Positions 37,980 through 38,939 of a DNA stretch of 39,584 nucleotides are shown piece by piece; within the stretch, counting starts at the first letter, position 1, and every line of letters starts with the position of its first letter. The stretch lies in the IMG/VR virus record IMGVR_UViG_2585427708_000019. One strand, given 5' to 3'. A program made the translations under genes and the position numbers. The notes beneath the pieces are model-generated. The model did no database searches, was not told the origin of the DNA, and saw only the letters and a list, made by a program, of their open reading frames with translations. The stretch is from a virus (Duplodnaviria; Heunggongvirae; Uroviricota; Caudoviricetes).

Positions 37980-38005
37980 AATCGATCGTTTTTGTCGATC
38001 GATTG
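37980..38005. promoter_or_regulatory. GATC-containing palindrome upstream of com-mom (candidate Dam/OxyR-type control region)
   Basis: AATCGATCG-tttttgt-CGATCGATT inverted repeat carrying two GATC sites about 45-65 bp upstream of the com start. Confidence 0.55.
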
Positions 38006-38047
38006 CATGAGAAAGGCATCAACAACAAAGCAGGAGGTTATGCGGTC

Positions 38048-38248
38048 ATGTATCGAAACATACGGTGCCGACACTGCAATAAGCTACTGGCACGGGCCAG
38101 TTTCAGTTATCTGGAAGTAAAATGTCCGCGCTGTAAAACCCTCAATCAAATCACATCTCCGAGCGCCACAGAGCACCCCACATACACAAGGAAATCCTGT
38201 CGTGGGGAACAGAAAGCAAGTCACATCCCGAATCATCAGCACGCCTGA
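38048..38248 (+). CDS. com: Com-like zinc-finger translational activator of mom
   Basis: ATG at 38048 with AGGAGG RBS; [33 protein letters not shown] has a CxxC...CxxC finger (Mu Com: ...IRCKNCNKLL...RCPRCK...); 3' end overlaps the next gene. Confidence 0.8.
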
Positions 38249-38939
38249 ACTTATTCGCTATAACGACAATATCGTTGGTTATGGCTCCCGTGAGTTGCGG
38301 GTTGAGACAATAAGTTGCTGGCTGGCCAGACTGGTCATCGTCAATAAACATTACAGCCACCGTTTCGTAAATAACTCCTACCTTCATCTGGGCATATTTT
38401 CAGAACGGGAACTTGTTGGCGTAATGCAATGGGGTTACGCCCTTAACCCAAACAGTGGTGCACGCGTCGTAACGGGTACGCAGAACCGAGAATATATGGA
38501 GCTTAACCGGCTATGGCTGCATGACTGTATGCCGAGAAACTCCGAATCAAGGGCAATCAGTTACGCGCTCAAGCTAATCAGGCAGCTTTATCCGCAGGTA
38601 CAGTGGGTTCAGTCGTTTGCAGATGAGCGTTGTGGCTGTCTTGGTGTCGTGTATCAGGCAAGCAATTTTGATTATGTAGGCAGCCATGAATCAATATTCT
38701 ATGAACTTGATGGCGAGTGGTATCACGAGATTTGCAGGAATGCCATTAAACGAGGCGGACAACGAGGTGAACATCTGAGGGCTAATATTGACAGAGCCAG
38801 TGTTCATAAGTTCCGACAGTTTCGTTACATCCGGTTTCTGAACAAGAGGGCCAGAAAACGCCTCAACACAAAGCTATTCAAAGTCCAGCCTTACCCAAAA
38901 CCACAAACAGTTAAAACTGGTTTGAAAGAGAGTGAATGA
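38202..38939 (+). CDS. mom: Mom-like DNA modification (anti-restriction) protein
   Basis: 245 aa starting at GTG 38202 (AAGGA RBS) inside the 3' end of com; last gene before the right end, as in Mu. Confidence 0.7.

Follow-up and report, generated by a model that had tools for sequence, protein, structure and literature searches.

An Sp18-type Mu-like prophage of Escherichia coli with a com-mom operon behind a putative two-GATC OxyR operator at its right end

In the stretch of DNA analysed here (39,584 nt, hereafter the window), the E. coli gene yoaF is interrupted by a complete Mu-like prophage of the Sp18 type, a type known from O157 Sakai. The com and mom genes are located at its right end, together with the following features:

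38033..38038, plus strand: com Shine-Dalgarno sequence AGGAGG, read off the sequence and kept in the siblings
38048..38248, plus strand: com, ATG start, 66 aa, zinc-ribbon protein, RefSeq WP_001310452.1
38160..38175, plus strand: presumed Com-binding region of the mRNA, CGAGCGCCACAGAGCA, directly 5′ of the start-codon hairpin, assigned from Mu
38176..38207, plus strand: translation-inhibition hairpin, CCCCAC (38176-38181) pairing with GUGGGG (38202-38207), with the mom GUG sequestered
38202..38939, plus strand: mom, GTG start, 245 aa, RefSeq WP_000528251.1 'protein mom'
38940..39067, no strand: right end of the prophage; homology to other phage copies ends at 39067 and yoaF resumes at 39068

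The com-mom region was 100% identical to that of E. coli 2013C-4225 (NZ_CP027577.1), while a full-length ungapped comparison of the window with NZ_CP027577.1 breaks, indicating an indel somewhere. The genes annotated by RefSeq in NZ_CP027577.1 comprise a repressor region, a Mu transposase, a B-like ATPase, Gam and one Mor/C-family activator, as well as genes for lysis, heads and tails, an invertible segment for the tail fibre together with its recombinase, a cargo block, com and mom. In that strain, frameshifts are annotated in the genes for the tail sheath and the tape measure. ARAGORN detected no tRNA genes in the window; the RefSeq record of the matching strain NZ_CP027577.1 lists a 'tRNA-OTHER'. 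The com upstream region and com were present in approximately 215 of 5426 complete E. coli genomes at a coverage of at least 80%, and further copies of the prophage were found inserted inside Stx phages. Both genes are already named in RefSeq, com as 'Com family' and mom as 'protein mom' or 'tRNA(Gly)-dependent adenine aminoacyltransferase Mom', and Sp18 has been described as encoding homologues of Mom and of the regulators of Mom at the corresponding position (PMC3299994). The invertase gene (34119-34679) is located 3.3 kb from com with a 2.7-kb cargo block in between, and only a 'ATCAATTAA' remnant of the gin end is left. In Mu, by contrast, gin abuts the operator of the com-mom operon (Mup54/Mup55) and GATC1 lies in the last gin codons.

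The first-pass annotation described a Com-like CxxC...CxxC ORF overlapping the 5′ end of a 245-aa ORF, and this arrangement is present with an overlap of 47 nt. The smaller protein carries four zinc ligands in two CxxC motifs (C7/C10 and C26/C29). It matched the Pfam family Zn_ribbon_Com (PF10122; 1.9e-12, 46.9 bits at a cutoff of 22.9) and the PHROG 'gpCom control of modification' (7.8e-13) and showed 47% identity to Mu Com. Judged by these matches, the zinc-finger ORF is a Com orthologue.

The 245-aa ORF had been proposed to encode a homologue of Mom. Alignment with Mu Mom (locus L001) confirmed this, with 79% identity over 229 aa without gaps (E 2e-140). The protein also matched the Pfam family Mom over the whole profile (PF25680; 4e-77, 258.9 bits at a cutoff of 27.1, profile positions 1-202 of 202), the solved structure of Mu Mom (PDB 8bv8; 4.5e-124) and the PHROGs family 'Mom-like DNA modification protein'. 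By homology, it is a Mom orthologue. Mu Mom has a GNAT fold and transfers glycine from Gly-tRNA(Gly) to the N6 of adenine in double-stranded DNA; the adduct afterwards rearranges to N6-carbamoylmethyl-adenine, and the roles of residues needed for Mu Mom activity were reported in the same 2026 paper (PMC13219725). The residues Y28, W48, H58, Y59, R111, S124, D149, R151, Y159 and W181 of Mu Mom are all identical in the window protein (10/10), and its HTH-like insertion (175-209) is identical at 28 of 35 positions. Since all reported key residues are kept, a different chemistry is not expected. The earlier suggestion that the enzyme might use the same chemistry as Mu or a variant is thereby narrowed to its first half: the chemistry of Mu is expected and a variant is not.

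The start codon of mom lies in a hairpin (38176-38207) that was recovered in both the MFE and the centroid fold and whose loop contains a Shine-Dalgarno-like element, AAGGAA. Its folding energy was no better than that of shuffled sequence (z = -0.74, not significant), and the support for the hairpin is therefore comparative rather than thermodynamic. It is present in six family members, the outer pair being U-A in Mu and C-G in the window, so that the Mu stem (UCCCAC/GUGGGA) is altered on both sides relative to the window. In an alignment of the 75 nt 5′ of the mom start from Mu, the window and relatives of other genera, the block GAGCA(U/C)CCCAC ... GUGGG stood out as conserved; Mu and the window have in common a mom GUG start within a CCCAC/GUGGG hairpin with a conserved 5′ flank. 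A small stem upstream of the hairpin showed compensatory changes at three of its four pairs, and the presumed Com-binding region aligned with the motif GAAUGCC-NNN-GAGCAUCCCAC of Mu, L009 and L019. In Mu, Com binds immediately 5′ of the hairpin and opens the structure (PMC3378877, PMC3299994). Given the homology to the Mu Com system, translation of mom in the window should be Com-dependent as well.

The translational module is intact (com, hairpin and mom) in approximately 215 genomes, and com, the hairpin and the GUG are retained even in a sibling prophage in which a C5 methylase replaces mom. A com gene overlapping the start of a DNA-modification gene at the prophage end is known from other phages, the second gene encoding a DNA methyltransferase in Pseudomonas phage B3, FluMu, Pnm1 and P2-like E. 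coli prophages (PMC3299994). Unlike these, the window carries a true Mom as its payload.

Upstream of com, the following sites were assigned:

37939-37944 (ATGACT), 17 nt, 37962-37967 (TATCAA): alternative candidate promoter further upstream, by inspection and conservation only
37954..37968, no strand: putative upstream OxyR half-site ATTTGTTGTATCAAT, 7/10 match to ATAGnTnnnAnCTAT, without GATC
37980..38004, no strand: perfect palindrome AATCGATCG-N7-CGATCGATT with two Dam sites (GATC at 37984-37987 and 37997-38000)
37985..37999, inside the palindrome: OxyR-like half-site ATCGTTTTTGTCGAT, bracketed by both GATCs, 7/10 match to ATAGnTnnnAnCTAT
38017..38022, plus strand: hexamer CATCAA, a candidate for a weak -10; siblings have TATCAA or TATCAT

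The palindrome with two GATC sites was likewise correctly recognized in the first pass and lies just upstream of com (37980-38004, GATC at 37984 and 37997). Its arms, AATCGATCG (37980-37988) and CGATCGATT (37996-38004), are 100% complementary and flank the spacer TTTTTGT. A perfect palindrome with 9-bp arms is by itself unremarkable: 13 such matches were found at six places in the window, with an estimated one or so expected. The sequence is the sole match in the window to its own pattern at three or fewer mismatches (0.13 expected), and no other GATC pair 13 nt apart occurs in the 39.6 kb. The two half-sites match the consensus at no more than 7/10, and 57 positions in the window score at least 7/10 against it. 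The half-site at 37954-37968 sits exactly 31 nt upstream of that within the GATC pair and corresponds to the Mu half-site overlapping GATC1, with AATT in place of GATC. Sibling prophages show virtually no variation within 37954-38004, whereas the adjoining 15 nt are hypervariable.

Two further structures in this region were rejected. A scan flagged the palindrome as a minus-strand terminator, yet no minus-strand gene ends there and a plus-strand U-run is missing. A 23-nt inverted repeat (37924-37946 / 38012-38034) that would hide the com Shine-Dalgarno sequence was dismissed because the 23CRST047-type sibling does not conserve its left arm. An Rfam search of positions 37400-39300 returned two sub-threshold chance matches only.

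The resemblance to the Dam/OxyR-regulated mom promoter of Mu, also suggested in the first pass, goes further than was proposed there. The sequence upstream of com in Mu is GATCGAATCAATTAAATCGATCGGTAATACAGATCGATTATGCCCCAATAACC, in which GATC 2 and 3 form AATCGATC-N9-GATCGATT; the window has this element too. The palindrome is identical to Mu (L001 2174-2198) at 19 of 25 positions and positionally homologous to GATC sites 2 and 3, and an OxyR-like half-site is found 31 nt upstream in Mu too (L001 2148). Mu, however, has three GATCs (at about -88, -70 and -57) and the window two, the position of GATC1 being replaced. The GATC pair is located at -64/-51 relative to the com ATG compared with -91/-78 in Mu, i.e. 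27 nt closer, and the 27 nt missing from the window are those in which Mu has its C box (ATTAT-N6-ATAAC), the T6 spacer and the -35 ACCACA.

An even closer match was found to the OxyR operator of E. coli agn43 (L111 433-457), which is identical to the palindrome at 21 of 25 positions. The agn43 operator is a textbook, experimentally established Dam/OxyR switch. It has the layout GATC-N15-GATC-N9-GATC, with half-sites 32 nt apart compared with 31 nt in the window and with a third GATC 19 nt upstream that the window lacks, and its position coincides with the annotated start of the transcript (isrC/flu leader) or is downstream of it. In P22 and Salmonella gtr, GATC pairs 13 nt apart bracket single OxyR half-sites, and one of these pairs, at -46/-33, overlaps the promoter (PMC2909390). 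The 13-nt GATC spacing is thus common to the window, gtr, Mu and agn43. The gtr system differs in having three half-sites and four GATCs, with alternative activating and repressing positions of OxyR, whereas the window has one methylatable half-site.

For a broader view of the operator, loci of Mom relatives were gathered (21 genomic and 80 viral). A GATC-N9-GATC pair was found 5′ of com in 23 distinct sequences from Escherichia, Edwardsiella, Symbiopectobacterium, Apirhabdus and other elements; upstream of mom genes that have no com (L015-L018, L022) a GATC cluster was absent. Outside the GATCs, conservation within the pair was restricted to G4 (17/23), T6 (20/23), A10 (14/23) and C12 (16/23). 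All four are positions that the OxyR half-site consensus ATAGnTnnnAnCTAT, printed as ATAGxTxxxAxCATAT (PMC2909390), specifies, and its 'n' positions vary freely. Additionally, the consensus was scored family-wide at each offset from -60 to +60 around the GATC pair. One outstanding non-overlapping peak was obtained, at -31 nt, with a mean score of 5.84 compared with a background of approximately 2.7, and downstream of the pair no OxyR-consensus peak was seen up to +60. The best reading of the window sequence is therefore an OxyR tetramer site at approximately 37954-37999, roughly 46 bp in length, whose downstream half-site would be Dam-sensitive. Control of com-mom in the window by Dam and OxyR is well supported by sequence.

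How this operator would relate to the promoter depends on where transcription starts. In Mu, Pmom consists of a C box overlapping a poor -35 (ACCACA), a spacer of 19 bp that contains a T6 run, and the -10 TAAGAT, and the start site was put at approximately L001 2248 from a primer annealing downstream of +56 (PMC3378877). This C-activated architecture differs from that of the window, where the C box, ACCACA, the T6 run and TAAGAT are not recognizable between the palindrome and com. A sigma-70 consensus scan of the region before com gave no site scoring at least 9/12. Two candidates were picked by inspection and conservation. The hexamer at 38017-38022 is retained although the 15 nt that separate it from the palindrome differ among close relatives, and its distance to the com ATG is 26 nt compared with 29 nt from the -10 to the ATG in Mu. 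If this YATCAW hexamer is the -10, transcription would start near 38029 and the GATCs would be placed at about -46/-33, which is the geometry of gtr. With the upstream candidate, transcription would start near 37974 and the operator would fall in the leader, as in agn43. Since OxyR would overlap the core promoter under either candidate, repression of the window promoter through binding to the unmethylated site is plausible.

As a possible trans-acting factor, one further gene of the prophage has to be considered:

10343..10768, plus strand: Mor/C-family late activator gene, 141 aa, RefSeq annotation, the only such gene in the prophage

The encoded protein is 40% identical to C and 31% identical to Mor of Mu; Mu has two Mor/C homologues and the window prophage one. 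The protein probably activates late transcription in trans, that of com-mom included. Searches for shared words, dyads and palindrome patterns revealed no convincing activator box common to the com upstream region and the late intergenic regions 10730-10842, 17960-18085, 18555-18735 and 24830-24962. The sequence CATGAGA(A/C)A, which occurs upstream of com and in the lys start region, was discarded as probably due to chance. As the Mu promoter elements are absent and no activator site was found, dependence of com-mom on the late activator is an assumption.

In an alternative reading, the palindrome itself would be bound by the late activator of the phage, a dimer of the Mor/C type, and would stand in for the missing Mu C box, the GATCs being incidental or modulating activator binding. 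The dyad symmetry of the palindrome, the absence of the Mu C box and an activator just 40% identical to C are consistent with this, and with a start approximately 20 nt 5′ of com, as in Mu, the palindrome would extend from about -50 to -26, where Mu C binds its own promoter. However, the palindrome is unique in the prophage, with nothing similar elsewhere, including upstream of the lysis and morphogenesis operons, over which this activator would be expected to have control as well. Moreover, GATC-N9-GATC adjoins distinct activator boxes of their own in Mu, D108-like and other lineages, and the element also occurs at the chromosomal agn43 operator, where a phage activator is not involved. On these grounds we regard an activator site as improbable.

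Taken together, the data are best explained by a com-mom operon of an Sp18-type Mu-like prophage that is expressed late and forms a multiply gated anti-restriction module working as in Mu; we estimate the probability of this reading at roughly 80%. A weak promoter would adjoin or lie under the approximately 46-bp OxyR site composed of the half-sites 37954-37968 and 37985-37999. OxyR is known to differ in its binding modes between the oxidised and the reduced form. With the GATCs unmethylated, a reduced OxyR tetramer would occupy this site and keep the operon off. Methylation of both GATCs by Dam would exclude OxyR and allow transcription, probably aided by the single Mor/C-type activator. Com would then be translated off its strong Shine-Dalgarno sequence, bind the mRNA just 5′ of 38176-38207 and open the hairpin, so that the mom GUG becomes exposed. 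The structure itself was shown computationally, and the steps of translation are modelled on Mu. Finally, Mom would transfer the glycine of Gly-tRNA(Gly) onto the N6 of adenine in double-stranded DNA, followed by rearrangement to N6-carbamoylmethyl-adenine, and this modification would shield phage DNA against many restriction enzymes. The enzymatic step is predicted from the 79% identity and the full conservation of the residues reported as important.

A departure from the Mu scheme, to which we give little credence, would be that the Sp18-type com-mom promoter is a compacted one. In that case a two-GATC, agn43-like OxyR operator would be placed directly on the core promoter, an activator box would not be needed, and Mom, or the C5 methylase swapped in for it in sibling prophages, could be switched phase-variably in lysogens rather than gated only in the late lytic phase. 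The agn43 operator governs a chromosomal adhesin with heritable ON/OFF switching, whereas the putative operator in the window would govern com-mom.

It is very doubtful that transcription starts upstream of the palindrome (ATGACT-17-TATCAA, start near 37974) and that the palindrome, transcribed as part of the com 5′ leader, forms an RNA hairpin of 9 bp with an influence on the stability of the mRNA or on translation of com. Both the -35-like and the -10-like hexamers are conserved, the -35 reading ATGACA in a sibling, and the homology of divergent prophage variants begins at approximately 37939, just 5′ of the hexamers. The TATCAA can, however, just as well be assigned to the upstream OxyR half-site, and the homologous palindrome of Mu occupies -74 to -50, before the mapped start and hence outside the mom transcript. 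Furthermore, the bases flanking the GATCs (positions 4/12, 5/11, 6/10 and 7/9) are complementary in only 17-57% of the family. Positions outside the GATCs are thus not kept complementary, which argues that there is no selection for a stem.

Equally remote is the idea that the operator has been inherited as a relic and regulates nothing in this lineage, com-mom being silent or read by read-through only, as might be suggested by the loss of one of three GATCs and of 27 nt of the Mu promoter, by the lack of a promoter recognizable in the consensus scan and by the frameshifted annotation of tail sheath and tape measure in the 100%-matching RefSeq strain, because siblings show no variation in the palindrome or in the 25 nt before it, in sharp contrast to the 15 hypervariable nucleotides next to them, and com, hairpin and mom are intact in the approximately 215 genomes, Sp18 itself having been judged intact (PMC2669165).

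The preferred reading, a late, multiply gated module working as in Mu, describes known biology that is already annotated and mentioned in the literature, and the promoter architecture is a modest regulatory variant of it. A widespread prophage of E. coli, largely of STEC, carries an intact Mom hypermodification module; the practical significance of this is small, and the chemistry and control logic of the module are already understood from Mu. Across the family, the operator upstream of com appears as a conserved modular element, composed of the GATC-N9-GATC half-site and a partner 31 nt upstream, of which different com-mom lineages keep different GATC subsets. Because the Sp18-type promoter is without a Mu C box, it could serve as a simple natural system in which to ask what part of the layered control of Mu is needed to silence a toxic DNA-modifying enzyme.

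Further features of the region between the invertase gene and com, and of the 3′ end of mom, are located in the window as follows.

34781-37430: cargo block between the invertase gene and com
37469-37933, minus strand: 154-aa ORF, divergent from com
37747-37776, plus strand: terminator-like hairpin with a 13-bp stem, within the 154-aa ORF
37857-37881: second small GATC cluster, with GATCs at 37862 and 37873, 11 nt apart
38934-38957: palindrome GAATGAG-CGCTTAAAAA-CTCATTC, overlapping the mom stop codon

The cargo block encodes, in this order, a protein of 679 aa that combines a sialate O-acetylesterase (SASA) domain with DUF6645, a DUF1378 protein and a DUF826 protein. 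Lambdoid/Stx phages typically carry such genes in their late region. Phage Mu has no counterpart of this block, and its invertase gene gin abuts the mom operator. The divergent 154-aa ORF lacks an obvious Shine-Dalgarno sequence. Its residues 1–104 match phrog_26524, of unknown function (2.5e-52), and its C-terminal 55 aa resemble a CxxC...CxxC zinc ribbon. In two related Sp18-type prophages (siblings), the annotation marks this ORF as frameshifted, and a third sibling has an unrelated 86-aa ORF in its place. Additionally, the RefSeq annotation of the matching strain contains a 'tRNA-OTHER' on the opposite strand at approximately 17965-18045, between two head-morphogenesis genes; ARAGORN detected no tRNA in a scan of the whole window.

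The second GATC cluster is held by the near-palindrome AAAATGATCATTTTATGATCGTTTT, of which GATCGTTTT is found again at 37984, in the proposed Dam/OxyR operator. It falls in a variable region that is missing from the 23CRST047-type sibling, and no OxyR-like half-site with a score of at least 7 was found at the cluster. Judged by sequence comparison, the subset of Mu's three GATCs that is retained differs between lineages, since another Mom lineage of approximately 79% identity (IMG/VR loci L062, L068, L069, L072 and similar) keeps GATC1 and GATC2, 18 nt apart, and reads CATC at the position of GATC3. In the com leader, the tract CAACAACAA at 38019-38030 is six nt longer in one IMG/VR relative (L035; CAACAACAACAACAA), which moves the operator relative to com from -64/-51 to -70/-57.

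At the 3′ end of mom, the GAGCGCTTAAA motif of the palindrome occurs a second time at the left prophage end (approximately 388-398). The palindrome could serve as a weak terminator, or it could be a repeat related to the prophage ends.

The counterpart of the window from 38048 to approximately 38215 was located in a sibling prophage of E. coli 2013C-4081 (NZ_CP027573.1; L029, 2765-3971). Operator, com, Com site with hairpin and GUG start are all retained as in the window, and about six codons past the GUG a 350-aa C5 cytosine DNA methylase (PF00145, 1.6e-42) stands in place of mom. This variant was present in 10 of 5426 E. coli genomes, the methylase adjoining com in every case. Arrangements in which another methylase follows com are likewise common at P2-like prophage ends (L110). 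Because the 2013C-4081-type sibling retains the operator, com, hairpin and GUG with mom replaced, the com/hairpin cassette seems to work as a portable gate on translation that serves different DNA-modification payloads.
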